Positions 1 through 27,566 of a stretch of 64,000 bases of DNA are shown in pieces. Below the pieces are notes generated by a model, which made no database searches, had not been told where the DNA came from, and saw nothing but the letters and a program-made list of their open reading frames with translations. The position numbers were made by a program, and so were the translations under genes. The stretch is from Acidobacteriota bacterium (GTDB lineage: Bacteria > Acidobacteriota > Blastocatellia > RBC074). The DNA lies in contig JAFDVI010000001.1 in NCBI GenBank assembly GCA_018269055.1, forward strand, positions 69,443-133,442, in the 5' to 3' direction. Position 1 is the stretch's first letter. The number at the start of each line of letters is the position of its first letter.

Positions 1-1972
1 TCAGTGGCTCGCCGCCTTCAATCGGCAAAAGCGCAACGGTGCTTCGGACGTTTTTTTCATCCTGACAAAAACAGGCAATCCAACTTCCGTCCGGCGAAAT
101 CACCGGACGAGACATAGGCTTTTGACTGAGCGGAACGGGCTCTCCACCTTCAATTGAGACTTTCCACAAAGCAGTCTTGCCGGTGGTGGAAGAGCTGTAA
201 ACCACTGATTTCCCATCAGGCGTTACAGCCGGAAAAACATCCCCGATTCCGTTCGTAAGCTGTCTTGGATTGCCGCCGTCTATGTCCATTCGCCAAATGT
301 GGCTGCCGCCACCACGTTCCGAGGCAAAGACAATGTAACGATTATCAGGGGAAACGACGGGCATAATGTCTGTTTGCGGATCCCGCGTTAGTTGTTTTTG
401 CTGTTTTCCATCAATATCAGTGACCCAAACATCCAGATTGCCGCTGGCATGGGCCGTGAACACCAATTGCCCGTCCGGCGTCCAATCCAGTCCGAAGCGT
501 TCGCTGTAATTGTCTCCAAACCCGGATTTGATCTGCGAAGCTTTCCAGGCATCGAAACTGCCCGCTCCTTCGGGGACAATCCAGATGCTGGAAATTCGGT
601 CGGAGCGCCCGGTCACCAGTAAGCCAGAATCGGCGGTGATTCCAACCCCTTCGTAGCTGGTCATATCATTGGTCACACGGCGGGTTTCGCCTTTCGGGTA
701 GGTCAGCAAATAAAGCTGGTCACCGTATACCGCCGAAGTTCGCTGCCAGGCGCTGAAAACCACGCCACTGCCATCTCCCAGCCAAGCCACCTGGCCAATG
801 CTGGACCAGGTTTGACTGCCGATCGGTTTCGCTGAACCGTCTTCGACATTGACCGTCAACACCTGCATCACGGAATCGCTGGGCACCAAAGCTCCCGCCG
901 CACATGCAACCACGCGACCATCCGGTGACCAGGCCGGTCCGCGCGAAGACAAAATCTCAGGTCGTTTTTTGGTCAGCAATTTTCGATCTTCGGAACCATC
1001 GAGCTTTGCCACGATCAGCGAAGCTTCACGTTGTTGCGGGAAGTTACGCACAAACGCGAAATACTGGCCGTTTGGAGAAAATGTGATCGGGCTATCAACG
1101 TCATTCAATACTTCGCGCGCAATGCCGCCGAACAACGGAACCTGATAGAGCTTGCCAAGGGTCAAACCACCTTGCCTGTTGCGAGGATAGGTCACGTAAT
1201 AAATGAAGTTGTCGTCTGGCGAAAACGTGATTCCAACAAATTCAATTTCGGCCGGCACAACAATCTGAGTCGCACTTTCGGTCGCGACCTGCCTGACCCA
1301 AAGGCTCTGCAGATCACCATTTTCCGCCACATAAGCGACATATTTTCCGTCGCGCGAAATCGTCGGCTGCAACGCCTTGCCTGATGTCGTCAGTTTGACC
1401 GGGGCGATTTGCCGAAAAGCCGTTTTTCCGTGATTGTTCGTGCGCCGATACGCGATGTAAATCGCTAGTACCACAATCGCCAAGCTCACCGCCAGCAATC
1501 CAAACGTCGCCAGCAACCGTTTTCGGTTGAATGGTTCCGGCGCAACTTCAGCCATTGGCCCAGGCAAAGAAACCATTCCGTTCGTTTCTGCCACTTCCGG
1601 CACATGGCCGTTTGTCGCAAAACCCAACTCAGGTTCCGGCTCGCCAACCAATTGAACGTTGGCGGCGAACCTGTAACCGCGTTTCGGAATAGTTTCGATG
1701 AACTGACCGTCGCCGTTTCCATCACCCAACGCGCGACGAAGCTGGGAGATGTTTTGCGTCAAATTGCTCTCTTCGACAAAGGTCTCTGGCCAGAGCAACT
1801 GCATCAATTCTTCCTTGCCGATGATTCGCCCACGGTTTTCTACCAGGGCCAGCAAGGTGTCGAATACTTTGGGCGGCAAAGGAACTGTGCGCCCCTCGCG
1901 CATCAACAACTTTTCACCCGTATCCAAAAGAAACGGGCCAAATTCGTATAACTGCTTGATTTGCTTATTCAT
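1..1972 (-). CDS. Transcriptional regulator with an N-terminal OmpR/CadC-type winged helix, a TM helix, and a TolB-like beta-propeller. The C-terminus is cut by the window edge.
   Basis: A minus-strand ORF runs off position 1, so it is missing from the ORF track. The ATG is at 1970-1972 and translates MNKQIKQLYEFGPFLLD...GYRF, a Trans_reg_C motif. A hydrophobic segment (LLATFGLLAVSLAIVVLAIYIAY) follows, then repeated PD40/TolB-like blades (SPDG..VAY, SPDNRYIVFAS, TPDGKSVVYSS). Confidence 0.8.
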   Translation of the reverse strand, partial: MNKQIKQLYEFGPFLLDTGEKLLMREGRTVPLPPKVFDTLLALVENRGRIIGKEELMQLLWPETFVEESNLTQNISQLRRALGDGNGDGQFIETIPKRGYRFAANVQLVGEPEPELGFATNGHVPEVAETNGMVSLPGPMAEVAPEPFNRKRLLATFGLLAVSLAIVVLAIYIAYRRTNNHGKTAFRQIAPVKLTTSGKALQPTISRDGKYVAYVAENGDLQSLWVRQVATESATQIVVPAEIEFVGITFSPDDNFIYYVTYPRNRQGGLTLGKLYQVPLFGGIAREVLNDVDSPITFSPNGQYFAFVRNFPQQREASLIVAKLDGSEDRKLLTKKRPEILSSRGPAWSPDGRVVACAAGALVPSDSVMQVLTVNVEDGSAKPIGSQTWSSIGQVAWLGDGSGVVFSAWQRTSAVYGDQLYLLTYPKGETRRVTNDMTSYEGVGITADSGLLVTGRSDRISSIWIVPEGAGSFDAWKASQIKSGFGDNYSERFGLDWTPDGQLVFTAHASGNLDVWVTDIDGKQQKQLTRDPQTDIMPVVSPDNRYIVFASERGGGSHIWRMDIDGGNPRQLTNGIGDVFPAVTPDGKSVVYSSSTTGKTALWKVSIEGGEPVPLSQKPMSRPVISPDGSWIACFCQDEKNVRSTVALLPIEGGEPL

Positions 1973-2411
1973 AACCAATCCCGTAAACGCCTTCGGAACC
2001 CAGTTGCAAGTCGCTTGGAAACAACTCAGTCAATTTTGAGCCTTTCTTGAAGACTTACAACGTCTTGTTTCGATAAATGTCCAAACGCAGCGGAGATCAA
2101 CCGGGATCAAACTGACGGCACTCAGGATTGGTCGCGCAATTCGCCGCCAGTGGGTTCCCTTCACGGTCAAGGCTGCACGCATATTAGTCCTGCTCATCGG
2201 GACTCACAACCTTGTCCGAGGCACGGCCGCAAACAAAGGTGAATTCTGACGACTCAAAAAAACCTGCGTTTTCGACTGTGCCGCGGGCGGTTCTTCCAGG
2301 AGACCTTTGGATGGAAGGGAATTTCCGAGGTGGCCTCTTTGGCGTTCCCTTGCTCCAACAATTTCAGCAAAGACGTTTGGTCTTGGCTTTCACGCTGCAC
2401 GATGAAAACAA

Positions 2412-2457
2412 CGAAGACAAAAAACAGGCGAGCGGCAACCAATTCACCGCTCGCCTG
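2412..2457 (-). terminator. Rho-independent terminator read on the minus strand. Likely the distal terminator of the pyrE transcript.
   Basis: An 11-bp perfect stem (caggcgagcgg / ccgctcgcctg, 2425-2435 and 2447-2457) is followed on the minus strand by TTTTTTGTCTTCG. Confidence 0.6.
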
Positions 2458-2794
2458 TCATTTTCCCGCCTGACCTGTTTTTCTTCAGTAACTCCCTGAA
2501 GCCATCAACTCAAAATCACTGAAACAAAACAACTTCTTCGCCTGCAACCCCCAGTTTCACACGATTTTCGATTCGACCACCAGTCATTTTGCAGAAATTC
2601 CATATCTTGGGGCTAAATGAAAAACCGAGTACCATATTTTGCGCCTGGCGATTCCCACCCATGCACTTGACAGCGATTTCACTTAAGCCAGCACGGGCGA
2701 TTTCAGGCGCATATTAGTTTTCACGTGGAACGGCGCGGGTTTTACGCGCCGACCTGCTGAAAGCGCCTGCTGACAGGGGACAAATCCGTTCCTT

Positions 2795-3397
2795 TCATTG
2801 CTGGCCGCCGGGTCGGCTTCCGGGTTTGATCGCGGTCGAACCTTCCTTGCACATCGGACAATCTTCCGGTTTGTAGGTTGGCACTTCCAATACAGCCAAT
2901 GCATGCCGTGGAACGCCCAAATCCACTGCTCCGCCGCTTCGATCAATCAACGAACCTGCTCCGACCGTCACGCCGCCCAAAGCTGCGACGACATCCATCA
3001 CTTCGCGCGTGGAACCGCCAGTTGTCACGACATCTTCGACGACCAGACAGCGTTCGCCTGATTTGATGGAAAATCCTCGTCGCAAGGTCATCACCTTTTC
3101 CTGCCGTTCGGTGAACAGCGCGCGAACGCCCAATGCGCGAGCGACTTCGTGCGCAACGAATACGCCGCCGAGCGCCGGAGCAATGACCAAATCAATCTGG
3201 CCGATGCTCGGATCGGCTTTGGCCTTGGCGGCAAGCTCCGCACAAAGTTTTTCCGCCACAGGCGGATGCTGCAACACCAGCGCGCATTGCAAATACCGCG
3301 AGCTGTGCAGGCCAGAACTGAGCAAAAAGTGGCCTTTCAACAAGGCCTGGTTTTCTTCAAAAATTGTCAACACCTCTTCTGTCGTCATGATTGCCAT
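2795..3397 (-). CDS. pyrE: Orotate phosphoribosyltransferase
   Basis: 200 aa. PRTase-type motifs are present (VLVVEDVVTTGGS PRPP-binding loop), and the length fits PyrE. Confidence 0.85.
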   Translation of the reverse strand: MAIMTTEEVLTIFEENQALLKGHFLLSSGLHSSRYLQCALVLQHPPVAEKLCAELAAKAKADPSIGQIDLVIAPALGGVFVAHEVARALGVRALFTERQEKVMTLRRGFSIKSGERCLVVEDVVTTGGSTREVMDVVAALGGVTVGAGSLIDRSGGAVDLGVPRHALAVLEVPTYKPEDCPMCKEGSTAIKPGSRPGGQQ

Positions 3398-3501
3398 CCA
3401 GAAAATGAAGTTCCCGGTTCGCAGTTTACAGGTCGCGGCTTGTGGAGTTACTTTGTCGCCGCTGTCTCACAACTCTTCAAACCGGAAAGCGAAAAAAAAT
3501 T

Positions 3502-4242
3502 ATGTCCACAAAACTAAATCTGGAGGAGCACATCTCCTCCAAAGAGAAAAAGCAAGGCTACGTCACGCAGATGTTTGAAATCATCGCTCCGCGCTATGAT
3601 TTCTTCACGGTCTTTTTTTCTTATGGCATGGATCGCGGTTGGAAACGCAAGCTGATTGAAATGCTCAATCCGAAAGGCCACGAATGCGCGCTCGATTTGG
3701 CCTGCGGCACCGGCGACATCACCTTCGCGCTGGGAGAGAAGCTGCCGCGCGGTGAGGCCACCGGGTTAGACATTACAACGGGAATGATTGAAATCGCCGA
3801 ACGGAAGCGCAGGGAAAAAGGCGTCAACAATGTTCGCTTCCAACTCGGCGACATCATGAAAATGCCTTTCGCCGACAACTCCTTTGATTATGTCACCTGC
3901 GGGTATGCGCTCAGAAACGTGCCGGATGTCGAAAAGGCGCTCGTAGAAATCAACCGCGTTATGAAGCCCGGCGGACGAATCATTTCGCTGGATTTCGCTC
4001 AGCCAGACAATCGGATTTACCGCTGGCTATACTTGAATTACCTGATCGTCACCGGTTCGCTGGTCGGCATTTTAATGCACGGCGACGCAGACATTTACCG
4101 CTATATTCCCGAAAGCTTGAAACGCTATCCGGGCCAGCATGGCGTTCAAACCCTCATGAACCAAGTGGGTTTCACAGAAACAGGTTTCCGCGTCTTTGGC
4201 GGCGGCATCATGTCTCTCAATTTCGGAACCAAGCCGAACTAA
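3502..4242 (+). CDS. ubiE: Class I SAM-dependent methyltransferase of the UbiE/MenG type (demethylmenaquinone/ubiquinone C-methyltransferase family)
   Basis: SAM-binding motif I is LDLACGTGD. Motifs YDFFT..S.G and YALRNVPD are typical of UbiE/MenG. The ATG at 3502 is preferred over the ORF-track start at 3442. It converges with fabF, with stops overlapping at 4239-4242. Confidence 0.75.
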
Positions 4243-5507
4243 GCTTCAAACCTCCTCACTACCAGTGCGGAGTTTTTCGATCCGAATCCGATGCAATTGC
4301 ACACTGCAGTGCGGATGTCCGCCGGGCGAGCCGCGTTCGGCACGTAATCCAGATCGCATTCTGGATCGGCTTCGTCCAAATTGATGGTCGGCGGTAGAAA
4401 TCCTCCGTTGATGCCGCCAATGGTCGCCATCAACCCCGCCGCGCCAGAAGCTCCCTGCGGATGCCCGATCATGCTCTTGGTCGCGCTCATCGGAATTTTG
4501 TAAGCCAAATCGCCGAAGGCATTTTTGACCGCACGCGTTTCAATGCGGTCATTCAGTTTGGTCGAAGTTCCATGCAGATTGATATAATCCACTTCTTGCG
4601 GCGCGATTCCAGCATCGCGCATTGCCAGCGTCATCGCCCGTGCGGGTTCCACGCCACTTTCATCCAGTTGTACGCGGTGATGCGCGTCGCAGGTAGAACC
4701 GTAGCCGACAATTTCCGCATAAATCTTCGCGCCGCGTTTTTGCGCGTGCTCCAACTCTTCCAGCACGAACAGGTAACCACCTTCGCCGATAACGAACCCA
4801 TCACGATCACGGCTGAACGGGCGCGAACCGCGCGCCGGTTCGTGATTCCACGAAGGTGTCATCACCTTCAACATGCAAAACCCCAGCATGAAACTGTGCG
4901 CCAACGGAGCGTCCACGCCTCCGGTCAGCACACTGTTGACGCGACCAAGCGCGATATTTTGTGCTGCATAATTGATCGCATCGGTCGAAGACGTGCAGCC
5001 CGTGGAAACCAGATGACTGAAGCCTTTGATCCCAAACGGCATCGAAAGCTCGCTGGGCAAAGACCCAGGCGTCGCCGTCGGAATCGTGTAAATGCTGGCG
5101 CGTTTGGCTTCGTTGCCAAAATAATACCGATACTGTTTTTCAATGAATCCAAGCGAAGCGCCGCCGCTGCCCAGCACGATGCCGATGTCGCGTTTTTCAT
5201 CCAGCGACATTTCTCGTGGATTCAATCGCGCGTCAGCAAACGCCAGTTCCGCCGCAGCAACGGCAAACGCCACTGTCAGGGAAACGTGTTGCCGATCTTT
5301 GGCAGAGATGAATTGATCCGGATCGAAGTCTTTCACTTCGGCGGCAATCTGTACCGGCAAATCGTCCGGCTCAAATCGCGTGATGCGATTCACACCACTC
5401 CGACCGGTGCGGATGGATTGCCAATACTGCTCTTTGCCTAAGCCAATCGGAGTGACACAACCGATGCCCGTGACGACAACGCGTCGCAGCGTTTTAGGTA
5501 TTTGCAT
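4239..5507 (-). CDS. fabF: 3-oxoacyl-[acyl-carrier-protein] synthase II (KAS II)
   Basis: 422 aa. Contains the active-site Cys region ([12 protein letters not shown]), two His motifs ([16 protein letters not shown]) and a C-terminal GHPQGASGA. Confidence 0.9.
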
Positions 5508-16138: not shown

Positions 16139-16745
16139 TTACCCTGAGCTACCGTTCTGTCCGTTGCCGTTTTTTCCGGGAAAACGCCGTTTCATCACGA
16201 TAGGTTTCGGCGGGCGGCGGATCGAATTGCCTGCCTCGTAAAGCTCGCTCAGCAAATGCACGCTCAGCGGGAGCGGGAAGTATTCGGATCCGGGGATGCC
16301 TCCCAAACTCATTCGTAAACGTCCTGGGCCAGCAACCCTCATTTCGATCAGTTCCCGCTGATAATCGTTGAAGTCTCTCATTAACTTCCCTATCCGCGTG
16401 ACTTTGTCATTCATCATTTCTTGAACCAGAAGCAGTTGCTCGGCAATGGCGCTTTCATTCGATATGGTTTGAACCAGTTTTGGCGAACAAACACGGAAGC
16501 CGCTATAAAACAGCATTGCCCGAATGCCTCTGGCTTCTTGAATCAGATTCTTGGCGCCGACCAGTAAATTCTCAATTTTATCAATTGTGTTCAACAGATA
16601 GTTCAGTCCCTCCAGGAAAATTGCCCTCTCCTCGGAGGCAAAGAATCTGGTTCGACCGGAATACCGAAGCGCTTCCATCAAGTCTTCGCACTCGCCTCTT
16701 GCGTCCTGCAGTTCCATTTCCAGTTGTGTAATCATTGTTGCACCT
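16139..16745 (-). CDS. Hypothetical protein. It is the last gene of the multi-REC operon and its 5' region carries direct repeats.
   Basis: An AAGGAGGTG RBS sits 6 nt upstream of the ATG at 16745 (MITQLEMELQ...). I recognise no known domain. The protein is predicted helical. Confidence 0.5.
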
Positions 16746-16820
16746 CCTTTTACCGATGAATCTTTCGTTCTCAATCAGGTGCATTTTCACGACGTTCGTA
16801 CACGGCAGGGCTTATCTTTC

Positions 16821-16958: not shown

Positions 16959-18905
16959 TTACTCCGATTCATCGGCCAGCCAGTAACCGCCGCCCGGTTC
17001 GTTGAGCAACAGGCGCGGATTCTCAGCATCGTCTTCGATCATTTTTCGCAATCGGCTGATAGCCACGTAAAGACGGTTGTTCTGATAGCTGTCATTTTCG
17101 CGGTACTCTTCCTTGAAGACTCGTTCGATGATTTCGCGCGGTGAATACAGTTGCCCGCGCCGTTCGGACAGCAAGCAAAGCAAATCATAGCTTTGCTTGC
17201 CTATGCGTAGGCGTTGACCACGCACCAACACAGCATGTTTTTCCTTATCAATTTCCAGCTTTCCACTGTGCGCTATTCGGTGAAGCGTTGCAGGTTGAGC
17301 GAGTTTGCCGCTGCTGACGGCGGCGGCAAGCAGTATATGAATCATGCGTACCAGTTCGCCTTTCACCAGTGATTCTGGATTGAGGCTCATAAACCGGCGC
17401 ATCGCTTCGAAGAGCATTCCCCAATGGTAGGTCGCCTGTCCCTGAACCAGCATGTTACTGGCCAATTTTCTGACGGTTTGGATGATGCGCGCTACGGGAC
17501 GTAGCGGCGGTTCCAACTCGCCGAAGTTGAAAATAGTGAAATCAGCGACCAAAGATTTTTCGAATTCGTGCAGCCAAATCAGCTTGTCGTTTTCGACCCA
17601 GTCGAATCGGATCATCGCTTCCAAAATTACGAAGTTCCAGAACAGCGGCATGGGGCCGGCACCGGCAAAATCCGTCAGCCAGGCCTTGCCAGTGCTATCG
17701 CTCAAAATACGCTCTCCGGAGGAAATGATTGGAGAATTGATCAGCGCCGGAAATCCGAAATCGCGGCGCATCATCTCCATCGGGTCGGGATATGTAATGG
17801 ACTCGCCGCCGAAGTAAAAGCGGATACTTCCCGGCGTAATTTCAAGTTTCATGTCCAGCAGAGTGGCTTTTTGCGCAAGAGCCTTTAGCCGCAATTCGTA
17901 TGCTTCAGGTGCCAAGCCGGAATAATCAAAGCCGAATCGCGATTGGCACAACGCGCCGAGAGATTCCCACTCATCTGAGAGATATTTTTCGCGAAAGCAA
18001 TAAGCAAGTGTCTCCTGGAAAAGCGTCTCAATTGTTTTGGCAACCGCCCTTTCATTGCCGCTGCGATACAATTCGATTAGCGAAGACACGCCGTCCAGAT
18101 CAGCCCCTATCAGCGTGTAAGCATTCAAGGCAAAATGGGTAACCGCTTGTGCGGATTTCAGTTGTGTTCGATTTAATCCGTCTGTTTTGGCAGAAACTTC
18201 GGAAGCTCGTTTGCTCTCTTCAGCGATCAACGATTCCCTTCCGCACACTACAAACAACGAAGTCTGTGGCTGATGGTCGGTAAAGGTGTGCACAAGCAAC
18301 GCAACTCGCCCGCCGCTCTGCCAATACAAGCGGGCAATTCGAATCAACCGTTCCTGCTGGAAAACCCGCCGAAACAGATATTCCAGTTCTTCTGCCTGGT
18401 TGGCCGCCTGCACGCGTTCCAGGCTGGGGCTGATTAGATCGGCCAAGTGCTGGAACGACGAAAGTCGCGACTGTTCATCGAACCGAATCTCCAGCTTTTC
18501 GTTACTCTGCGCATATTTTTTCAGGGCATTTTCAATTGCGCTGAGCAGCGCCTTCTTTCCTTCCTTCTTGCTGACGAAATCCACCGCAGGCGGCAATCCC
18601 TCCACCACCGGCCCCAGCGCTTTGCGAACCTGGTCGTAATCCGGCCAGCGGGTCATGATAATTTTAGGAATGCGGCGGTACTCCATTTTCTTGGCCAATG
18701 AAATACCGCTGGTGTCGCGACGGTTGTTGTCCTGTCGCAACCGTACATCAGTGATAAGTAGATTCACCCACGAATCAGCCATCACGCGCTCGGCCTCCTC
18801 GGAAGAAGCTGCGCACATCACTTCATAACCTGCTCGCTCCAAAATGTCAGCGCAGGTTTCCAGATAATCCGGATCGTTATCCACGACCAACAATCTCTTT
18901 TTCAT
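16959..18905 (-). CDS. Atypical response regulator: REC (with insertion) - protein-kinase-like/APH-like domain (probable pseudokinase) - OmpR/PhoB-type winged-helix DNA-binding domain
   Basis: The N-terminus is LLVVDNDPDYLE...LITDVRLRQDNNRRDTSGISL. The middle region resembles a kinase C-lobe: ...SSGERILSDSTGKAWLTDFAGAG is DFG-like, with a degenerate HGD catalytic loop. The C-terminal Trans_reg_C motif is YDLLCLLSERRGQLYSPREIIERVFKEEY...LYVAISRLRKMIEDD...GGGYWL. AGGAG RBS. Confidence 0.75.
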   Translation of the reverse strand: MKKRLLVVDNDPDYLETCADILERAGYEVMCAASSEEAERVMADSWVNLLITDVRLRQDNNRRDTSGISLAKKMEYRRIPKIIMTRWPDYDQVRKALGPVVEGLPPAVDFVSKKEGKKALLSAIENALKKYAQSNEKLEIRFDEQSRLSSFQHLADLISPSLERVQAANQAEELEYLFRRVFQQERLIRIARLYWQSGGRVALLVHTFTDHQPQTSLFVVCGRESLIAEESKRASEVSAKTDGLNRTQLKSAQAVTHFALNAYTLIGADLDGVSSLIELYRSGNERAVAKTIETLFQETLAYCFREKYLSDEWESLGALCQSRFGFDYSGLAPEAYELRLKALAQKATLLDMKLEITPGSIRFYFGGESITYPDPMEMMRRDFGFPALINSPIISSGERILSDSTGKAWLTDFAGAGPMPLFWNFVILEAMIRFDWVENDKLIWLHEFEKSLVADFTIFNFGELEPPLRPVARIIQTVRKLASNMLVQGQATYHWGMLFEAMRRFMSLNPESLVKGELVRMIHILLAAAVSSGKLAQPATLHRIAHSGKLEIDKEKHAVLVRGQRLRIGKQSYDLLCLLSERRGQLYSPREIIERVFKEEYRENDSYQNNRLYVAISRLRKMIEDDAENPRLLLNEPGGGYWLADESE

Positions 18906-19749
18906 GGTTTCGCTCCTGATTGGCTGATCGTTTGGCCGGCACAGACGGCTTTACTGGTTTCTGCCCCAACCACAAACCAGTAGCGGCATTGATGACGCGC
19001 TCTCTGCATTGCTCACGCATTCCGCCAACCGGCAGTTCCTCACTAGCGTCAAGCAGAATTTCCAATCCGCGGGTTTCCACCAATTCCTGGTGATACCGAT
19101 CCATGCGCTCGTTGGCGCTGTCGGTTCGCTTGAAGAAAAGCAGTGTTGCAGCTTCCGCCAGCACACCAGCCAAAGCGCTCAACACTGCCACATAAGTTTT
19201 ATCCTTGAGCGCCAGATATGTCCCGACAAAGATAAAAACCGCCCCCAAAACAGCGATGCCCAATCCTATCCGATAATTCCAGCGCGATTGCTGGCGAGCT
19301 TCTTCATAATCCTGATTGAGTTTGAGCACCAGCGTGTTGCTCGATTCACGATACCGGGATTCAAATTCCAAAGTGTTCCGCACTGCCGACAGTATCGCTG
19401 AAAATTCGTCTTTTTTGTCCACACAAGCTGCTGGACGCAGCTTCCCGTCCAATGACTCCTTGTTTGCTTTCCGCAGTGTTTCGTAATTCAGCCACCGAGT
19501 CAGAAGAATTTTGGGAACTTCCGGTGCTACCTTCAAAATGCGAATGCCGCTGATGTCCTGCTTGTTGCTATTGTTTTCCAATCGAACGTCCAGAATCGCC
19601 AGATCAATCCCGCCTTGCTCCAGAATTGCTTTGGCATCGTCTGGATTGGTTGCCGTCCTTACCTCAAAGTGCTTTCTGTCAAAATAATCCCGAAGCGATT
19701 CCAAATAATCGACATCATTGTCGGCCAGTAACAAGGTGTATTGAGCCAT
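18877..19749 (-). CDS. REC domain (with insertion) fused to a 2-TM membrane region and a short C-terminal tail
   Basis: Paralogous to the REC of the previous gene (LLLADNDVDYLE...LAILDVRLENNSNKQDISGIRIL...ILLTRW). Two hydrophobic helices follow (IGLGIAVLGAVFIFVGTYLAL; VAVLSALAGVLAEAATLLFF). AAAGGAG RBS. Its 3' end overlaps the next gene by 29 bp. Confidence 0.75.
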   Translation of the reverse strand: MAQYTLLLADNDVDYLESLRDYFDRKHFEVRTATNPDDAKAILEQGGIDLAILDVRLENNSNKQDISGIRILKVAPEVPKILLTRWLNYETLRKANKESLDGKLRPAACVDKKDEFSAILSAVRNTLEFESRYRESSNTLVLKLNQDYEEARQQSRWNYRIGLGIAVLGAVFIFVGTYLALKDKTYVAVLSALAGVLAEAATLLFFKRTDSANERMDRYHQELVETRGLEILLDASEELPVGGMREQCRERVINAATGLWLGQKPVKPSVPAKRSANQERNHEKEIVGRG

Positions 19750-19761
19750 CGAACGTCTCCT

Positions 19762-20133
19762 TTAAGCCGTAAGGTTTAATGCCTTGCAAACGGCCTCGCG
19801 CAATTCATCTTCGTCGTAAGATTTGCTGATGTAGTTTGTCGCGCCCGCTCTCATTGCGCTGCGCGCATGCTCCCAATGGGGCGCGGCTGAAGCGACAATA
19901 ATTGGCAAAGTTTCCTGTCGGCTTCGGATCAGCTCAATGAGAGCGGATGGCTCCGCCACCGCAGTCGCATCTATAAAAAGCAGTACGTATTCGCAGCCTT
20001 CAATTGACGCCAGGACATCTTTTTCTCCCACCGCATCTACTTCTCCCAGCCCAACCAGTGCCGACCTGAGCGTTCTGAGCCAATACTGGCTTTGCGATCC
20101 GTTGATGAGGAGGAATCGCATCTTAGAAACCAT
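19762..20133 (-). CDS. Stand-alone single-domain receiver (CheY-like) with a degenerate acidic pocket
   Basis: 123 aa. The putative phospho-Asp is in VLLFIDAT and the conserved Lys in YISKSYD. The N-terminal acidic pair is replaced (LLINGSQS). Confidence 0.65.
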   Translation of the reverse strand: MVSKMRFLLINGSQSQYWLRTLRSALVGLGEVDAVGEKDVLASIEGCEYVLLFIDATAVAEPSALIELIRSRQETLPIIVASAAPHWEHARSAMRAGATNYISKSYDEDELREAVCKALNLTA

Positions 20134-20148
20134 ACTTTTCTTCCGATC

Positions 20149-23100
20149 TCAATTTAATCGCGGGAGTTCAATTACTACCCGTGTACCAGTCTTTTCGCCT
20201 TTGGTGCTGGTCCAGGGAATCTGAATGCTACCGCCGTATTTTTTGATTATGGCCTGCGCCTTGAGCAAGCCGCCCCCTAACCCTTCACCGCCGTCTTCCT
20301 TGGAAATGATGCCCTTGAAAAGTTTGTCCAAAACCTTTTTAGGAATGCCCCTCCCCGTATCTTCAAAGGTGATTTCCACCTTTCCGTTCTCTTGGCTGGT
20401 GGTCACAGTGACCTCTTTCCGTTTGGAGTTCGCGACTGCCCGCACTGCATTGTCAATCACAATGTCACAGGCGAACTGAAACCAATCAGGACTGATTCTG
20501 ACTTCCAGCGGGTCGCTTGGTAGCAGGTTAAGTTTGTACTTCGTCCTTTGCTCAGGGTCATTTTCCCTGCGCGTTCTGATTTGCTCAGCCAACAGGTCGT
20601 TGACCGAAACATTTGTCACCCCCTCTTCGTTGGTGACCGGCGGAGTGATCTTGTAGTCCTGAATTTTTTGCGCGAGTTCCCTGATTTTCCTGAGCTTCTT
20701 GTCCTGTTCTCTAGTCAGCTTTTTCCCGTACGGATCGTCGAAGATTTCGCCGACTTCGGCGGCAATCGTAATCGCCTTTCCCTCGATCTCGTGCCTCCAC
20801 ACTCCGCTGACCATATCCATCCAGGAAAGCTCCGTGCTCGCCTGAATCTGCACATTGGCTTCAATCAGGCTTTTGTACTTTCGGGCATTTTGAATGGCGA
20901 TGGCTGCCTGTGTCGCCAGTGACTCCAAATCCCGTTTATCTTCTTCGTCAAAGGCGTTTGGTTCCGGATGTTCCAGGTTGATTACATAAACCACTTCGTC
21001 ATCAATGATGATTGGAACCGCGAGTTCCGCTTTGGTGGCGGGGTAATATGAAAGGTAGTCCGGGTCTTTGGATACGTCCCCGACCAAATACGATCGCTTA
21101 TCGCGAACAACCCGACCAGTAATTCCGATTCGCTTGCCCGGCTCAGGATTAAGCGGGATCGGAGGATTCTCGGGCGGCGAAGTCGGATAATAAGCCTCCG
21201 CTACGGCTTCATTCCCGACGATCCGCCTGATCGCCACAAAAGCTCCTTCTTCATTGGCGAGCTTCCACATCCAGGGAATGATTTTATTGATGACTTCGCG
21301 TTCAACGAGCGTCCTGGTAATTTCCTCGCCTGCTTCGTGCAAGGTCTGCAATGCTGTAACGCGTCTCCGCAATGCTTCATAAAGGCGCGTATTTCGGATG
21401 GCAACAGCGGCTTGGTCGGCAAAGAGTTCGATGTTCCGCTGCTCATTTGGCGTAAAGTTGTGCTGAGAACGGTTATTGACGAATAGGACGCCAACCGATT
21501 CCGTGCCGAGTCGCAGCGGAACAGCCAAACAGGATTTGATTTCTTCCTCTCGGGCAAATCGTTTGTCATGAAACATCGGGTCTGATGAAACGTCATCCGC
21601 TTTCACCGTCTTTCCCAGTTTCATAATTTCGTAAACCAGGGAATTCTCGGGAACTTCATCCCCACTAGCCAACTGCTCATCCCATACGCCAACCATGGTC
21701 CGCGGCTTCCTGAAGCTATTCTTCTCCTGATCGTAAACGAACAACACAATTGGCTCACAACCCGTAGTTTCTTTCGTGCCGTGGACAATTGTATTCAACG
21801 TTGTATCCAGGTCGCCGAGCGTGGTGACTTTCGCCACGACTTTTGCCGTGTCGCGCGTGGCCTTCAACTCTTTCATCTGACGTGCATTGTCGTACGTGCT
21901 CGCCGCTTGATTGACGTAGAGTTGCAAGGACCTGAGTTCCTGGCCGGTAAAATTGTGTGGCTCGGCGTAAGCAACCCAAAGCACTCCATGCCGCCGGCCT
22001 TGAGCAAAGAAGGGCAGGCAGATCGCTGCTCTAACCCCGTGTTCGAGAAGCAGTGGATTGGTTCGCCCCGGTTGGCGTTTCAAGTCAGGGATGGCAATCA
22101 GTTGGCCGCCGCGCATGACTTCGAGCGACACGCCATTTGCTCGAACGGAACGCGTTAAATCAAGCTGGCGTCCGATTTCATCAGGAATGATTCGCAGAGG
22201 GCGATAAGTTATCTCGTCAATCAAGATAATTCCTGCAAACAGAGCCTTCGTTGCTTTGCGCGTCAGTTCGCAGATAATTTGCAGCACCTGATCGGGGTCT
22301 TGCGGCGCGACCAGTTTGTCACTGGCGCGAGTGAGCGCTTCCTGCCTGATTCGCGCTTCCTGAGTTTGCTGAAACAGATTGTGATTCTCAACCGCTACGG
22401 CCGCCGCATTGACGAAAGTCATCAGGGATTTGAGGTCTTCTTCTGTAATGGGCAAGCGTGTGAAGTTATTGTCGGCAACGACCACGCCGAAAACGTGCCC
22501 TCGCACATTAAGCGGGGCCACCACCAGTTGCGGTCCGGGCAAAAATGCTTCCAGCAACCGATCTGGCAGTTTCAGCGCCTGATCACCTTCCAAGATGAGA
22601 CCCTTGCTATGCCTGCCATCAAGGACCTCATTGAATATATCGTCCGCTGAAGGCTTGCGTTCAAACCGCAATTCCTGCACCTTCGCGCCAACCGGCGTGA
22701 GTTCGATCTTTCCCTGCTCAAGCAGCTTTGTGTAATGAAAGAAATCGTCCAGCGTAGGCGCTTGCCAATCTCGCCAAACCGTATCCGCAGAAGCATGGTC
22801 AAATTGACCTATTCCGCATTTACCGACCAATTCCCCGCGTTCGTCCAGAAGAAAGAGGGCGGCGCGATTGAACCCCAATCCGTAACCCGCCGTGACGCCG
22901 GTCAAGGTGACGTGCAGCAAGCGTTCCAACCTCTGCGCAGCGGTCAATCCTTCATCGCCAAGCATTTTTTGAATGTAAAAGCTGACCTGATGGAGCAGGT
23001 TGAGCTGCTTGTTGACCTTTTCCTTTTGCGTCCCAAGCCGTGCGTTCTGCAATGTCAGCGAGGCGCGCCCTGCCAGCCGTTCCAACATCTCCTCATCGGT

Positions 23101-25350
23101 TTCGACAAACTGCCGGCTGTCGGTGCTTCCTACAACCAGCAGATATTCAATTTGTTCGCTGGGTTTGAGCGGCACAGCCACGACGGTCTTGAAGTGAAAT
23201 TGGTCGAAAGCGTGCTCGCGCTTGTGCCACTCATCATATTCAGCCTTGAACTGCGGTCTGCCCGTGCGGATGACTTCACCAAGCAATCCCTCCACAGACG
23301 AGGGATAGATAGAAGGCAGTGTGTTTTCGGGAAAAGTTCGGCAAAGCTCCAACTCCAACTGGCCGGGGCGGCAGGCAAAGAGAAAACTATTCGAATAATC
23401 CAGCACCTCTGCCGCGTACCGCGTGATTTCCTGTTCCAGTTCCGAGACCTTCAGTCCGCCTTGAATGTGCAAAAGGGCCTTGTTCAGCTTATCCAACAAA
23501 TGGTTGCGGTATTCGGTGAGGTCGAACTGCCAAAGACGGTCAATCAGACCAGTGATCTGGTGCGCAATGGCCGTAGCTGTCGGATAATCGGTTTCGTCGG
23601 TAGCGAAGGGAAATATCCCCGCCTTCTGCACTTCGCCGAGGGTGAGCAACCCAACGATCCTGTCGTCTTTCAGCAGGGGAACCAGCATCAACGTTTGAAT
23701 GTCTTCGCTAAGCCGCAAATATCCGGCAAATTGAATCAACTCCTGCCGCCACTCGGCGTCGCTGTGGAAAATTACTTTGCACTGGTTGGTATCGAAGATT
23801 TCCCGTAACAAGGCGCAGTCAGAGATTTTCATTGGAAATCCGGAGGCCGACCTATCATCCGGCCCCAGACCTGCATCCAGGGGAACATGTGAAACCTTGC
23901 TGACCAGGGTCTGGCTGTTTTCGTTGTATAGAAAAATGCTGCAGAAACTACTTTGTAACCGTTCAGCCAGCAGCCGCGCCAAAGCATTCAACCCCTCTTT
24001 AAGCGTGGCGGCTTCGGCCATGATCCTGCTGGCCTCCGAGAGGACCGCCAGTTGAGCATCCTTTTTTTGAATCTCTGTCAGATTTTCGAAATGGCCGATA
24101 CTGCCCAGATAAGCGCCGCTGGCGTCGTGGACGTAAGCCGCTGAAAGAAGAACAGGGACAGGGCGGCCATCTTTGGTCACCAACTCGGTTCTTTCCTGTC
24201 GCACCATGTGGTCTGAAGCGGTTTCCAGCATTTTGCCGATGCGTTGGGCTTCCGAAAATTTGAGATAGAGAATTTGAACGCCTTTCCCGATCAATTCCTC
24301 TTCCGTGTAGCCCAAAATCTGCAACGCCCGCTGGTTGACGAAATTGATCTTGCCTTCGGTATCAATGGCGATCTGGCCATTGGGCGAGCAGTGATCAAAA
24401 AGAGCCAGTTTTTGTTTTTCGGCGTCCAGTTGCTGCGCCAAATCTTTGGTCTGTTGAAAGAGCGCGGCATGTCGAATAGCTATAGCGGCCTGTGTGGCAA
24501 TGGTTTCAGCAAGTCTTTGGTGTTCTTCCTTGAAATAGCCAGTTTCGCGACAACTAAAGGTGAACACTCCTATGGCTTCATCGCCGTCTTTAAGCGGCAC
24601 GAGCAAAGCGGAGCCTCGCCGTAAGACGTCATCGGCCAAGATCAGCCAGCGTGGATCGGTGGTGAAATCGTCCAGACGCAGCGACTCAGAATTATTCATG
24701 ACCCATTTTGCACAGCCGTTGGCAAGGATCATCCGCGCCTTTTCATCCGACATGGCCAGTTCGTGGCCCCGCCAATTGTGCAGGCTGCCGTCTGCCTTGA
24801 CGAGCAGTAGACTTCCTTCGTGCGCGCCAATGCTGGTGGTTGCTCGCGTGATGGTTTCCTGCAGCAGGGTTTCCAGATCAAGATGCCTGAGATTCAATTG
24901 GTCAGAAATAACGCTGAGTAATTTCAGTGTGTCGAGTTCCTTAAACAGATGATGCTGCTGTGCGGCGTGGCGGATCAAGATGGCCAGTTCTTCCGGGTTA
25001 AAAGGCTTGGCTAAATACCGGAACGCTCCTGCCTGCAAGGCCTCCAAAGCCCGCTCCATTCCCCAGCCTGTGAAGATGATTGTTTCAGTGCGCGGCGAAT
25101 GCTTTTTGATATGGCTCATCAGGTCAACGCCGGAACGGATCGGACTTTTTCCGGCGCTGGGCGCCAGCACATCATCAATTAGCGCGACGTGATAAGGAAG
25201 TGTTGCACTTGTCACAAGTTCCCAAGCCTGCTCGGCGTCAGCGGCGGCATCCACGTGATAGTCATAGTCGGTTTGCAAAAATTCAGTCAACGGTTCGCGC
25301 AGGTTTATGTCATCGTCCACCAGCAAAACCCGCAAAGGCTCGTCGCTCAT
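20149..25350 (-). CDS. Giant multidomain signalling protein: REC (with insertion) - multiple GAF domains - PAS - further GAF domains - C-terminal histidine-kinase-like ATPase (HATPase_c)
   Basis: 1733 aa. The N-terminus is VLLVDDDINLRE...ALIDDVLAPSAGKSPIRSGVDL. At least five GAF-like modules are present. The C-terminus carries the N-box IDNAVRAV and the G-boxes DTGRGIP and GGEGLGGGL. A possible H-region is VWRHEIEGK. A strong GAAGGAGGG RBS precedes it. Its ATG overlaps the stop of the upstream kinase gene (ATGA). Confidence 0.8.
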   Translation of the reverse strand: MSDEPLRVLLVDDDINLREPLTEFLQTDYDYHVDAAADAEQAWELVTSATLPYHVALIDDVLAPSAGKSPIRSGVDLMSHIKKHSPRTETIIFTGWGMERALEALQAGAFRYLAKPFNPEELAILIRHAAQQHHLFKELDTLKLLSVISDQLNLRHLDLETLLQETITRATTSIGAHEGSLLLVKADGSLHNWRGHELAMSDEKARMILANGCAKWVMNNSESLRLDDFTTDPRWLILADDVLRRGSALLVPLKDGDEAIGVFTFSCRETGYFKEEHQRLAETIATQAAIAIRHAALFQQTKDLAQQLDAEKQKLALFDHCSPNGQIAIDTEGKINFVNQRALQILGYTEEELIGKGVQILYLKFSEAQRIGKMLETASDHMVRQERTELVTKDGRPVPVLLSAAYVHDASGAYLGSIGHFENLTEIQKKDAQLAVLSEASRIMAEAATLKEGLNALARLLAERLQSSFCSIFLYNENSQTLVSKVSHVPLDAGLGPDDRSASGFPMKISDCALLREIFDTNQCKVIFHSDAEWRQELIQFAGYLRLSEDIQTLMLVPLLKDDRIVGLLTLGEVQKAGIFPFATDETDYPTATAIAHQITGLIDRLWQFDLTEYRNHLLDKLNKALLHIQGGLKVSELEQEITRYAAEVLDYSNSFLFACRPGQLELELCRTFPENTLPSIYPSSVEGLLGEVIRTGRPQFKAEYDEWHKREHAFDQFHFKTVVAVPLKPSEQIEYLLVVGSTDSRQFVETDEEMLERLAGRASLTLQNARLGTQKEKVNKQLNLLHQVSFYIQKMLGDEGLTAAQRLERLLHVTLTGVTAGYGLGFNRAALFLLDERGELVGKCGIGQFDHASADTVWRDWQAPTLDDFFHYTKLLEQGKIELTPVGAKVQELRFERKPSADDIFNEVLDGRHSKGLILEGDQALKLPDRLLEAFLPGPQLVVAPLNVRGHVFGVVVADNNFTRLPITEEDLKSLMTFVNAAAVAVENHNLFQQTQEARIRQEALTRASDKLVAPQDPDQVLQIICELTRKATKALFAGIILIDEITYRPLRIIPDEIGRQLDLTRSVRANGVSLEVMRGGQLIAIPDLKRQPGRTNPLLLEHGVRAAICLPFFAQGRRHGVLWVAYAEPHNFTGQELRSLQLYVNQAASTYDNARQMKELKATRDTAKVVAKVTTLGDLDTTLNTIVHGTKETTGCEPIVLFVYDQEKNSFRKPRTMVGVWDEQLASGDEVPENSLVYEIMKLGKTVKADDVSSDPMFHDKRFAREEEIKSCLAVPLRLGTESVGVLFVNNRSQHNFTPNEQRNIELFADQAAVAIRNTRLYEALRRRVTALQTLHEAGEEITRTLVEREVINKIIPWMWKLANEEGAFVAIRRIVGNEAVAEAYYPTSPPENPPIPLNPEPGKRIGITGRVVRDKRSYLVGDVSKDPDYLSYYPATKAELAVPIIIDDEVVYVINLEHPEPNAFDEEDKRDLESLATQAAIAIQNARKYKSLIEANVQIQASTELSWMDMVSGVWRHEIEGKAITIAAEVGEIFDDPYGKKLTREQDKKLRKIRELAQKIQDYKITPPVTNEEGVTNVSVNDLLAEQIRTRRENDPEQRTKYKLNLLPSDPLEVRISPDWFQFACDIVIDNAVRAVANSKRKEVTVTTSQENGKVEITFEDTGRGIPKKVLDKLFKGIISKEDGGEGLGGGLLKAQAIIKKYGGSIQIPWTSTKGEKTGTRVVIELPRLN

Positions 25351-27566
25351 TTCGCCCCTCCTTCATCGGCAGCGGGCAATTCGACCAGAATTGTTGTCCC
25401 CAATGGAACGAAGCTTTCTTCAACGCTCACCCTGCCGCCCATCGAATTGACGAAGCTGCGCGCAATGAACAGTCCCAAACCGCTGCCGCCGCGTGTCGAA
25501 AATCCGGGTGAAAAAATCTTTTCCCATAACTGGCGGTGAATGCCTGGGCCGCTGTCCCAGAATCTGACCTGAACGGGCAACTCCCCTTCTCCCAAACTAC
25601 TGCTAATTGACAGCGAACGATGGTCGCCTCCCTTTATGGCCATTTGCTGTACGGCGTTGAGCATCAGATTCAGAAAGATTTGCTGCAAGGTGATGACGCT
25701 GCCTGCGACTTTAGGAAGCCCATCGGCCAGACGGCGGTTTATTTTCACGCCCTCTCGTCGCGCGACGGGTAGCAACAATGTTTCCGCGCGCAGCAACACC
25801 TGATTGAGGTCGCAGCCGCTGTCGCTGTGCTGAAGGTTGGTGCGGGACAATTGCTGAAAAGCCTCTACCGTATTCTTCATATCAACCACCATGTCGAGCA
25901 CGCGCTTGGAATCGAGCTTTAAGCGATCCTGTCCCTCGCATTTGCGCAGCAGGTTGAGAACCTGGATTTCGAGGCCGGAAACCTTGTTGGCGACTTCATG
26001 GCCGAAGCCTGCGCCCAGTTCTCCGCTCAACAGCATGGGGTGCATGGCCTGCAATCGTCTGTTGATGACGTCTTCGGTCAGAAGGGCTGAGAAAAGCGCC
26101 GCGCCCACGTATGCGTCCCGCAGCAGGCTGTCTCGTTGAAACCGATCCGGATCGCGGTGAAAAAAGAAGGCGGCGTGCCGGACTTCGCCGTGCACCTTGA
26201 TCGGGACGCCGAGGCAGGATTCGAAGCTCACATAATCGAGCAGCCGCGCAAAGCGAGCGCGCCCGCGGTCGCTGGCCTGGTTTTCGATTACCGACCTGCT
26301 TTCGCAAATCACATCTTTGACTGGACTTTCACGTAACGCATAGAAGGCCTCCTGATTTACAGCCACGCCCTCGGTCTGCGCCAGCAAGCTGATGGCCTGA
26401 GATACCGGATCAAGACAGAAGATCATCCCCGCCTGCGCGCGCATGTTTTTCGTGATCCAGGAAAGCGCCGCTTTCAGGCGATGAAACGGCGCGTCTTCCA
26501 AATCTTCAAACAGTTCCAGTTCGGGAAAGATTAGGGTTTGATCCCGTTCCGGAATGTGTTTGGCGTGCCAGGGCTTGATCGCTTCGCCCCCCGCCAGACG
26601 CAGAAAAAAGTGCTCTAACTCAGCCAGATCCAATGGTTTGGGAAAGACTTCCGACACCTCAAGTTCTTCGATTTCCGATGCACGGCCCGCCAATGTATCC
26701 GGTGTGCTCATCACGCAAATATGCGCTTGACTGCCCAGCTTTTTGGCGTGGCGAACAAGCTCCAATCCATCGCAATCGAACAAGGTCAAATCAGCAAGGA
26801 TCAACCCCCAATCTTTTTGTCCCAATTGGAATAGGCCCTCATTCAGGGTCGCGACCGGCTCAACCTCACAGCCGTGTTGTTTCAGCCAAGTCGTCAGTGA
26901 ATCACGCATCGCCGGATGATCCTCCACCAGCAGAATCGGCCCGATCAAAAGACACACCTCCGGAGTAATCATCTCGCCGGTAAAGGCCGCTGCCATAGAT
27001 GCGGTCACATCCGTTTCATCTATCCCGGTTTCCACTTGATCAAACATCGCCAACGCCCGTTTACGTTGTTGCAACCGCGCTTTAATGCTCAACAGAACTT
27101 TCTTTCTGCTCGGATCAATCCGTGTAACCACTGCTTCAACGCGGTCTTCCAGCCAAAACAATTCCTCTGGACGCGCAATCCGGCGTTCGCTCAACTCGTC
27201 GAGCGACACAAAACCTCTGATGCCTGGACAAAGGCGGACAGAAACACCGTTGGAGTGCAAAGCGCTGATGGCTCCTTCAATCACACTGCCTTCGCGGTGA
27301 AGGCGCAGAAAATCGTCCCAACCGTCTTCCAGCAAATCGCGGCGACTCAGTTCCAAGCACTTGTCTGTTTTTTCCAGGCCGATGACGATGCCCTGTACCA
27401 GTTCGCCAACCTGCGTCACTTTCGCCGGTTCTAGATCAGGTTCCAGACTTAATTCGCGGCGGCGAATGTATGCTCTTGTTTTGTCGCGGAGTTGCAGAAA
27501 GACACCAAAGGGCAGAATTGATTCAACAATTCCTTCCACTTTTTGTCCGATTTGATAGCCGCTCAT
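25347..27566 (-). CDS. Hybrid sensor histidine kinase with two N-terminal S1 RNA-binding domains: S1-S1-REC-GAF-HisKA-HATPase_c
   Basis: The S1 motifs are GQKVEGIVESILPFGVFLQL and GSVIEGAISALHSNGVSVRL. The REC is ILLVEDHPAMRD...LILADLTL. The H-box is GFGHEVANKV. HATPase motifs are LNLMLNAVQ, DSGPGI and GGSGLGLFIARS. An AGGAG RBS lies 8 nt upstream of the ATG at 27566. The longer ORF to 27872 lacks an RBS and overlaps the promoter region. Confidence 0.8.
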   Translation of the reverse strand: MSGYQIGQKVEGIVESILPFGVFLQLRDKTRAYIRRRELSLEPDLEPAKVTQVGELVQGIVIGLEKTDKCLELSRRDLLEDGWDDFLRLHREGSVIEGAISALHSNGVSVRLCPGIRGFVSLDELSERRIARPEELFWLEDRVEAVVTRIDPSRKKVLLSIKARLQQRKRALAMFDQVETGIDETDVTASMAAAFTGEMITPEVCLLIGPILLVEDHPAMRDSLTTWLKQHGCEVEPVATLNEGLFQLGQKDWGLILADLTLFDCDGLELVRHAKKLGSQAHICVMSTPDTLAGRASEIEELEVSEVFPKPLDLAELEHFFLRLAGGEAIKPWHAKHIPERDQTLIFPELELFEDLEDAPFHRLKAALSWITKNMRAQAGMIFCLDPVSQAISLLAQTEGVAVNQEAFYALRESPVKDVICESRSVIENQASDRGRARFARLLDYVSFESCLGVPIKVHGEVRHAAFFFHRDPDRFQRDSLLRDAYVGAALFSALLTEDVINRRLQAMHPMLLSGELGAGFGHEVANKVSGLEIQVLNLLRKCEGQDRLKLDSKRVLDMVVDMKNTVEAFQQLSRTNLQHSDSGCDLNQVLLRAETLLLPVARREGVKINRRLADGLPKVAGSVITLQQIFLNLMLNAVQQMAIKGGDHRSLSISSSLGEGELPVQVRFWDSGPGIHRQLWEKIFSPGFSTRGGSGLGLFIARSFVNSMGGRVSVEESFVPLGTTILVELPAADEGGAK

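Follow-up and report, generated by a model that had tools for sequence, protein, structure and literature searches.

We analyzed a 64,000-nt stretch of acidobacterial DNA (the window, to which the gene coordinates refer) and focused on one very long gene at 20149..25350. The 1733-amino acid (aa) product of this gene is most likely a genuine, autophosphorylating, cytoplasmic sensor histidine kinase of class I and hybrid type with a divergent H-box, as predicted from comparison with relatives and from structural modeling. The evidence for this reading comprises the domain anatomy, the invariance of one His and of the ATP-binding residues, a predicted fold made up of a dimerization and histidine phosphotransfer (DHp) domain with a catalytic and ATP-binding (CA) domain, and a conserved gene neighborhood. 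The protein is identical to MBS1786147.1, which is labeled "GAF domain-containing protein [Acidobacteriota bacterium]" and stems from a 223-kb contig of a metagenome-assembled genome (MAG). A preliminary description of the DNA had reported the 1733-aa open reading frame (ORF), which is confirmed and lies on the (-) strand, and had assigned to it the order REC-(GAF)n-PAS-HATPase, where REC is a receiver domain, with at least five GAF domains. The array and the PAS domain are both present, but the number of GAF domains is seven and the PAS domain sits between the first and second of them; the order by Pfam from N to C terminus is REC, GAF, PAS, six further GAF domains, a helical hairpin, and HATPase_c. 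The gene and its parts are as follows.

20149..25350, (-) strand: WRH-type giant kinase gene, 1733 aa, REC-GAF-PAS-GAFx6-DHp-HATPase_c
24976..25329, (-) strand: N-terminal receiver, aa 8-125 (Pfam Response_reg, E 2.8e-17)
24475..24882, (-) strand: GAF1, aa 157-292 (Pfam GAF_2, best stretch; local GAF hidden Markov model (HMM), E 7e-23)
24073..24387, (-) strand: PAS, aa 322-426 (Pfam PAS_9, E 5.6e-15; NCBIfam sensory_box, E 5.7e-16)
23539..24009, (-) strand: GAF2, aa 448-604 (isolated fragment: GAF_2 29.3 bits, GAF 28.4 bits)
23044..23448, (-) strand: GAF3, aa 635-769 (GAF_2 40.0 bits)
22384..22881, (-) strand: GAF4, which carries an internal insertion, aa 824-989 (GAF 29.8 bits; local HMM, E 4e-12)
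21898..22302, (-) strand: GAF5, aa 1017-1151 (GAF_2 61.4 bits)
21397..21813, (-) strand: GAF6, aa 1180-1318 (GAF 64.1 bits)
20890..21300, (-) strand: GAF7, aa 1351-1487 (GAF_2 47.0 bits)
20644..20859, (-) strand: divergent DHp-like helical hairpin, aa 1498-1569 (AlphaFold2 (AF2), Foldseek, and conservation)
20791..20793, (-) strand: codon of H1520, the predicted phospho-acceptor His (codon position checked)
20158..20478, (-) strand: HATPase_c catalytic domain, aa 1625-1731 (Pfam, E 2.4e-16)

The segment ahead of the ATPase domain had been called a non-textbook H-box; it matches no Pfam DHp model, yet it is predicted to form a DHp hairpin of two helices, in which one His is invariant, rather than to be a place where the dimerization and phospho-acceptor domain is absent. 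When aa 1470-1733 (264 aa) was used as the query in an exhaustive search, 287 cluster representatives (clusters at 50% identity) were obtained at E≤1e-30, and the best 150 of the 287 matches cover nearly all 264 residues, including the pre-ATPase segment. Conservation within this group, which we term the WRH family, was counted in a strict set of 192 sequences that are 30-87% identical to the window kinase; 17 of 209 aligned sequences, nine of them canonical-HisKA proteins, fell outside the strict definition and were left out. The search for a phospho-acceptor His gave no clear HisKA match, yet H1520, within the sequence WRHEI, was conserved in all 192 members. The positions around it are also well kept (W1510 and W1518, 188/192 each; R1519, 163/192; A1526, 179/192), and the family motif reads TALAWMGMxSSxWRHxIxxxAxTI; behind it come a second helix, also conserved, and a PITPPLS linker. 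The residues that bind ATP are likewise invariant across the family: N1634, D1664, G1666, G1668, and G1692 were each found in 192/192 sequences. G1694 was found in 191/192. In the window kinase these residues belong to the N box (N1634), the G1 box (D1664/G1666/G1668), and the G2 box (G1690/G1692/G1694), the same boxes from which the preliminary description had recognized a C-terminal GHKL ATPase.

The remaining evidence on the hairpin came from profiles and models. A whole-module family profile matched solved kinases in the PDB at E 1e-19 to 1e-23, in alignments that span DHp and CA through the hairpin; in them, the family His falls on the phospho-acceptor His both of ZraS (AHEIRNPL) and of FixL-derived YF1-type kinases (AHELNQPL). 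The AF2 model of the C-terminal module, built from a 34-sequence alignment (predicted local distance difference test score, pLDDT, of 78.5), opens with a long helix that a short turn connects to a second helix; the alpha/beta ATPase domain comes after these. The hairpin helices extend over residues 1471-1538 and 1547-1565, and the final helix of GAF7 continues into DHp helix 1 as one unbroken helix (fragment residues 2-69). Among the top 50 Foldseek matches in the PDB (E 7.5e-15 to 2.5e-12, 226-284 aligned columns), nearly all were DHp and CA chains of class-I kinases or closely related histidine kinase-like chains, including ZraS, YF1-like proteins, LvrB, HK853, CpxA, WalK, CckA, and the tyrosine-type DivL. 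We conclude that the hairpin is likely to work like a DHp domain.

The gene belongs to a co-directional cluster on the (-) strand that encodes, beside the receiver of the giant kinase itself, two kinases and four further REC domains. The other members are listed here in the order of transcription.

25347..27566, (-) strand: S1-S1-REC-GAF-DHp-HATPase kinase (S1 kinase), upstream, 739 aa from ATG 27566
19762..20133, (-) strand: 123-aa atypical receiver, downstream, 15-nt gap to the giant kinase gene
18877..19749, (-) strand: REC plus CyanoTRADDas_TM protein with two transmembrane (TM) segments (Pfam, E 3.9e-15)
16959..18905, (-) strand: regulator of 648 aa with REC, a TCAD9-like (protein-kinase-like) region, and an OmpR-type winged helix-turn-helix (wHTH) domain (Pfam REC and Trans_reg_C)

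The start and stop codons of the two kinase genes overlap as ATGA at 25347-25350, with a ribosome-binding site of sequence GAAGGAGG. The preliminary description was correct on this coupling, but its further claim of stoichiometric co-expression asks more of a 4-nt overlap than it can show, which is translational coupling only. The S1 kinase starts at ATG 27566 behind an AGGAG site, giving 739 aa as in its homologues; the longest ORF, from TTG 27872 (841 aa), is over-extended. The protein joins a pair of RNA-binding S1 domains to a histidine kinase, and its H-box (GFGHEVANK) has no Pfam HisKA match but aligns to AtoS across the H-box. On the other side of the giant kinase gene, the REC/2-TM gene overlaps the next gene by 29 nt.

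Much of this arrangement recurs among the relatives. Neighbor counts were restricted to loci with enough flanking sequence (34 downstream, 20 upstream). The 123-aa receiver is the next gene in 29/34 loci, the regulator lies downstream of the kinase in 31/34, a full-length REC/2-TM homologue separates the receiver and regulator genes in 7/34, and the S1 kinase lies directly upstream of the module in 14/20. The cassette also flanks the orthologues P0006 and P0007 as well as distant metagenome relatives. Phospho-acceptor sites are intact in the receiver proteins that almost always follow the kinase gene. In the regulator receiver, the equivalents of CheY Asp57, Thr87, and Lys109 are kept in 34-35/35 sequences and a 5-6-residue insertion is always present. 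Homologues of the 123-aa protein all retain the Asp57 equivalent (37/37) and keep Thr/Ser87, with the acidic pair (CheY D12/D13) in only 1/37, so that by its residues this protein appears to be an atypical receiver or a pseudo-receiver whose invariant Asp is unexplained. The regulator contains about 400 residues between REC and the OmpR-type wHTH. The Pfam TCAD9 model does not match the 648-aa regulator of the window; homologues that are 30% identical to it end to end (E 2e-78) match TCAD9 at E 1e-19 to 1e-22, and the window copy was assigned to this family because those homologues are TCAD9-positive. The sequence WLTDFAGAG in the regulator looks like a DFG motif. Scanning the operon for sigma70 promoters and terminators was uninformative, as shuffled sequence gave more sites than the operon itself.

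Several results nevertheless count against assigning kinase activity to the giant protein. Isolated aa 1460-1625 gave no match at E≤10 to HisKA, HisKA_2, HisKA_3, HWE_HK, H-kinase_dim, His_kinase, or other Pfam DHp models, and none of 34 relatives matched a Pfam DHp model at E≤0.1, whereas HATPase_c matched 34/34; the absence of a canonical HisKA box had been noted correctly at the outset. The DHp-only profile found no significant kinase match in the PDB (best, LvrB at E 1.5), and Pfam HisKA membership is therefore not claimed at the level of sequence. Compared by hhalign with a canonical HisKA alignment of proteins from this analysis, the same profile aligned His on His at P 5.6e-4 and 30% probability. 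The pLDDT falls to only 55-62 in the first half of helix 1, just before the His. The case for homology of the hairpin is thus made by a weak similarity between profiles, by the context of the alignments, and by a predicted structure. The H-box chemistry is also unusual. HisKA-type kinases use an acidic residue behind the His in catalysis, and such a residue occurs at His+1 in only 14/192 family members (93% lack it). The window kinase has E1521, and its H-box (H-E-I-E-G-K) retains only this acid of the H-E/D-x-x-T/N-P signature; across the family, His+4 is G, K, or N and the Pro at His+5 is absent. The HisKA phosphatase motif is missing, and the E/DxxT/N phosphatase/kinase motif is not conserved in the family. 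Finally, the best PDB sequence match of the family profile is NifL (9QQ6, E 1.8e-23), a kinase-like protein that is not known to autophosphorylate when it signals.

The H-box chemistry and the NifL match lend some weight to the idea of a NifL-like pseudo-kinase, in which the hairpin and GHKL domain would bind nucleotide and shift conformation and never autophosphorylate. Output would then occur by direct contact with the neighboring regulators, or the protein would serve only as a phosphatase or scaffold, and the S1 kinase would supply all phosphoryl groups; the canonical-looking H-box of that translationally coupled upstream kinase (GHEVANK, with its AtoS-like alignment) fits such a division of labor. 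We nonetheless consider this account quite unlikely. A His that never varies in 192 sequences, with identities as low as 30%, would be difficult to account for if it had no chemical role, the ATP-binding residues are all retained, and the true kinases ZraS and FixL score almost as well as NifL. HisKA_2/HWE kinases likewise lack the acidic His+1 and yet are active. In addition, the S1 kinase is absent beside the module in L004, L023, L041, and L044, and L004 and L023 keep both receiver genes, beside which the WRH kinase is the only kinase seen in the sequence examined.

A second alternative, raised in the preliminary description, is that the HATPase is a non-kinase ATPase, that is, a chaperone-like GHKL enzyme whose hydrolysis would drive a conformational cycle of the GAF array with zero phosphotransfer. 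The missing HisKA-type Pfam match and the failure of the DHp-only profile to find a PDB kinase would agree with it, but we regard it as very improbable given the invariance of H1520, its alignment with the His of ZraS and FixL, and the obligate receiver neighbors. The fold search is equally unfavorable, as the top 50 Foldseek PDB matches were almost all class-I DHp and CA or closely related histidine kinase-like chains and included no gyrase, MutL, or Hsp90. Moreover, the protein ends 2 residues past HATPase_c and has no transducer-like second domain behind the GHKL domain. A Ser/Thr- or Tyr-directed GHKL kinase of the SpoIIAB/RsbW or DivL type, phosphorylating a partner protein instead of its own His, is extremely improbable: DivL is among the structural and sequence matches and weak HATPase_c_2 matches occur in 22/34 family members (best E 8.3e-5), but HATPase_c scores far above HATPase_c_2, the conserved position is a His and not the Tyr of DivL, and no STAS/anti-sigma-antagonist or sigma factor gene is found in the conserved neighborhood. 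Because of the invariant His, the obligate receiver neighbors, and the kinase-like fold matches, we consider all three alternatives unlikely and retain the reading as a probable autophosphorylating histidine kinase.

Alignment with CheY and the operon RECs shows that the N-terminal receiver, as described earlier, is a true family member: D12/D13, the phospho-acceptor D59, T94, and K115 correspond to CheY 12/13, 57, 87, and 109, making the residue set of a phosphorylatable receiver complete. Directly behind D59 it carries a 7-residue insertion that is also seen in two downstream REC proteins. Among family N-terminal RECs, the Asp57 equivalent is present in 21/23 and the Thr in 23/23. Each of the seven GAF domains scores above a Pfam GAF-family gathering score as an isolated fragment. 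They are mutually 20-40% identical over local alignments, which rules out a recent tandem duplication. The GAF terminal-helix motif A.QAAIAI.NA.. occurs five further times along the kinase, which fits an array threaded by helical linkers. The signature of the cyclic nucleotide-binding GAF type of phosphodiesterases and cyclases, NKFDE, was not found anywhere in the kinase, either as NK[FY]DE or as NKFD; a Pfam search of the whole kinase gave no PHY domain match of the phytochrome/cyanobacteriochrome type, and no LOV motif was seen by eye in the PAS domain. The WRH-family kinases that appear to be full-length (108 sequences) contain 1 to 15 GAF domains (median 7) and measure 545 to 2978 aa. The size of the sensory array varies freely among them, and the C-terminal module is fixed. 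The earlier notion of a multi-input hub is consistent with the seven divergent GAF domains, the PAS domain, and the receiver-rich operon, although all ligands are a matter of conjecture.

We infer autophosphorylation, the direction of phosphotransfer, and the partner assignments as follows. The seven divergent GAF domains and one PAS domain, joined by the GAF terminal helices, would form a long sensory array that controls the DHp-CA core by way of the continuous helix leading into the two-helix DHp hairpin. HATPase_c would bind ATP and phosphorylate H1520 on DHp helix 1, in the WRHEI H-box. The phosphoryl group would then pass to neighboring receivers, with the 648-aa REC/kinase-like/wHTH regulator as the most probable main target and the REC/2-TM protein as a possible further recipient; the 123-aa atypical receiver may act as a modulator or adaptor. 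D59 of the kinase's own REC would probably be phosphorylated by the coupled S1 kinase, or by the giant kinase itself, and would gate its activity. Such gating would make the two kinases a cascade or a branched relay.

A broader proposal is that the WRH kinases are more than HisKA kinases for which the models are poor, and form the core of a distinct, self-contained signaling module of filamentous or soil Chloroflexota and Acidobacteriota that couples multi-ligand or RNA sensing to a defense or cell-fate response; as it stands we rate this unlikely. The kinase may have a DHp chemistry of its own, lacking the acidic His+1 and the phosphatase motif, and may be paired specifically with insertion-bearing receivers. 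The other parts may be the RNA-binding S1 kinase, the receiver that lacks the acidic pair, and the regulator with TCAD9 between REC and wHTH. TCAD9, a protein-kinase-like family, was originally named in vWA-MoxR conflict systems, and NTP-dependent conflict systems are where both it and the CyanoTRADDas 2-TM domain were originally defined; for this reason the module could serve defense or cell fate and not ordinary metabolic regulation. The REC/2-TM protein shows weak similarity to SLATT and to the PADLOC "4TM effector". None of the six operon proteins had a significant match to PADLOC defense models; the best was that 4TM effector match at E 0.0038. No histidine kinase domains were found among vWA-associated effectors in the conflict-system paper (Kaur et al. 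2020).

The family is large, uncharacterised, and found in soil and sediment bacteria. An initial word-index search returned only 3 matches, a limit of its sensitivity, and the exhaustive search with its at least 287 clusters rules out rarity. Using one peptide pattern, we located 41 loci with the full module in GTDB species genomes, all of them MAGs, from Chloroflexota (Anaerolineae, Ardenticatenaceae, Chloroflexia, Thermoflexales) and Acidobacteriota (Blastocatellia/Pyrinomonadaceae), with one locus in a MAG labeled Proteobacteria. Within the window, only the gene at 20149..25350 matches, which rules out a second module of this type. Literature searches found no description of the WRH kinase family or its operon.

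Comparison with known systems places the WRH kinase core nearest the NtrB/ZraS/FixL/NifL group. The class-I kinases NtrB, ZraS, AtoS, and FixL are the best sequence and structure matches of the module; they resemble the family in the predicted DHp hairpin and CA fold, their phospho-His aligns with the family His, and the family N, G1, and G2 boxes are intact. The H-boxes differ, with WRHxIxxxAxTI in the WRH family versus (A/S)HE(I/L)(R/N)xPL in the other group, and the WRH family lacks the His+5 Pro, usually lacks the acidic His+1, and has no Pfam DHp match. NifL of A. vinelandii has the same kinase-like DH and GHKL core. It combines PAS-flavin sensors with the AAA+ activator NifA as partner and is not known to perform phosphotransfer. 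The WRH family differs in its invariant His and its neighborhood, in which receiver proteins take the place of a NifA-like GAF-AAA+ partner; a sigma54 activator lies near the module only in L001. The Leptospira proteins LvrA and LvrB are, like the window pair, encoded by two adjacent genes, each with REC and kinase modules. LvrB (PDB 8VC9), a structural and sequence match of the giant kinase, has an N-terminal REC before DHp-CA; unlike the window kinases, it has no GAF array, no S1 domains, and a canonical HisKA. LvrA phosphorylates LvrB, and by analogy this likeness suggests a kinase-to-kinase relay via the N-terminal receiver.

The overall architecture, REC-(PAS/GAF)n-DHp-HATPase, already is a known class: the giant kinase shares it with the "REC-HisK" class, REC-(PAS/GAF)n-HisKA-HATPase, of an archaeal census (Galperin et al. 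2018, PMC5847659), in which no REC-HisK protein had been experimentally characterized. The WRH proteins differ from that class in their much longer GAF arrays and distinct DHp type, and from the archaeal members in being bacterial (Chloroflexota, Acidobacteriota) and in keeping to a fixed group of partner genes. The new features are those of the family, namely a DHp type outside Pfam whose H-box usually lacks an acid at the catalytic position; very long and variable GAF arrays; and a fixed partnership with insertion-bearing receivers, a regulator with a kinase-like domain, and often the S1 kinase. The giant kinase itself is a large but conventional kind of signaling enzyme. The at least 287 clusters annotated only as "GAF domain-containing protein" very probably are histidine kinases, and because no Pfam DHp model picks up the WRH phospho-acceptor domain, the number of kinases in Chloroflexota and Acidobacteriota is underestimated in two-component censuses. 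The family also bears on signal transmission through GAF arrays of up to 15 domains, and, with no acidic residue behind the His in most members, it lends itself as a natural experiment to the study of H-box chemistry. Its linkage to the conserved regulator and S1 kinase provides concrete, testable partners.

Some minor observations concern the surroundings of the gene. In L001, the closest relative, genes of a contractile injection system (sheath, gp19-like tube, baseplate) and the sigma54 activator are found close to the cassette (1..5300), a neighborhood conserved neither in the other loci nor in the window. Inside the kinase gene, an antisense ORF of 357 aa begins with ATG (22735..23808, (+) strand) and probably is a by-product of composition. 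Downstream of the cassette, a 211-aa ORF at 16139..16774 on the (-) strand has no Pfam match; its conservation is limited to L001 and L002, the two close relatives among acidobacteria (59-69% identity). The remainder of the window consists of ordinary chromosomal genes.

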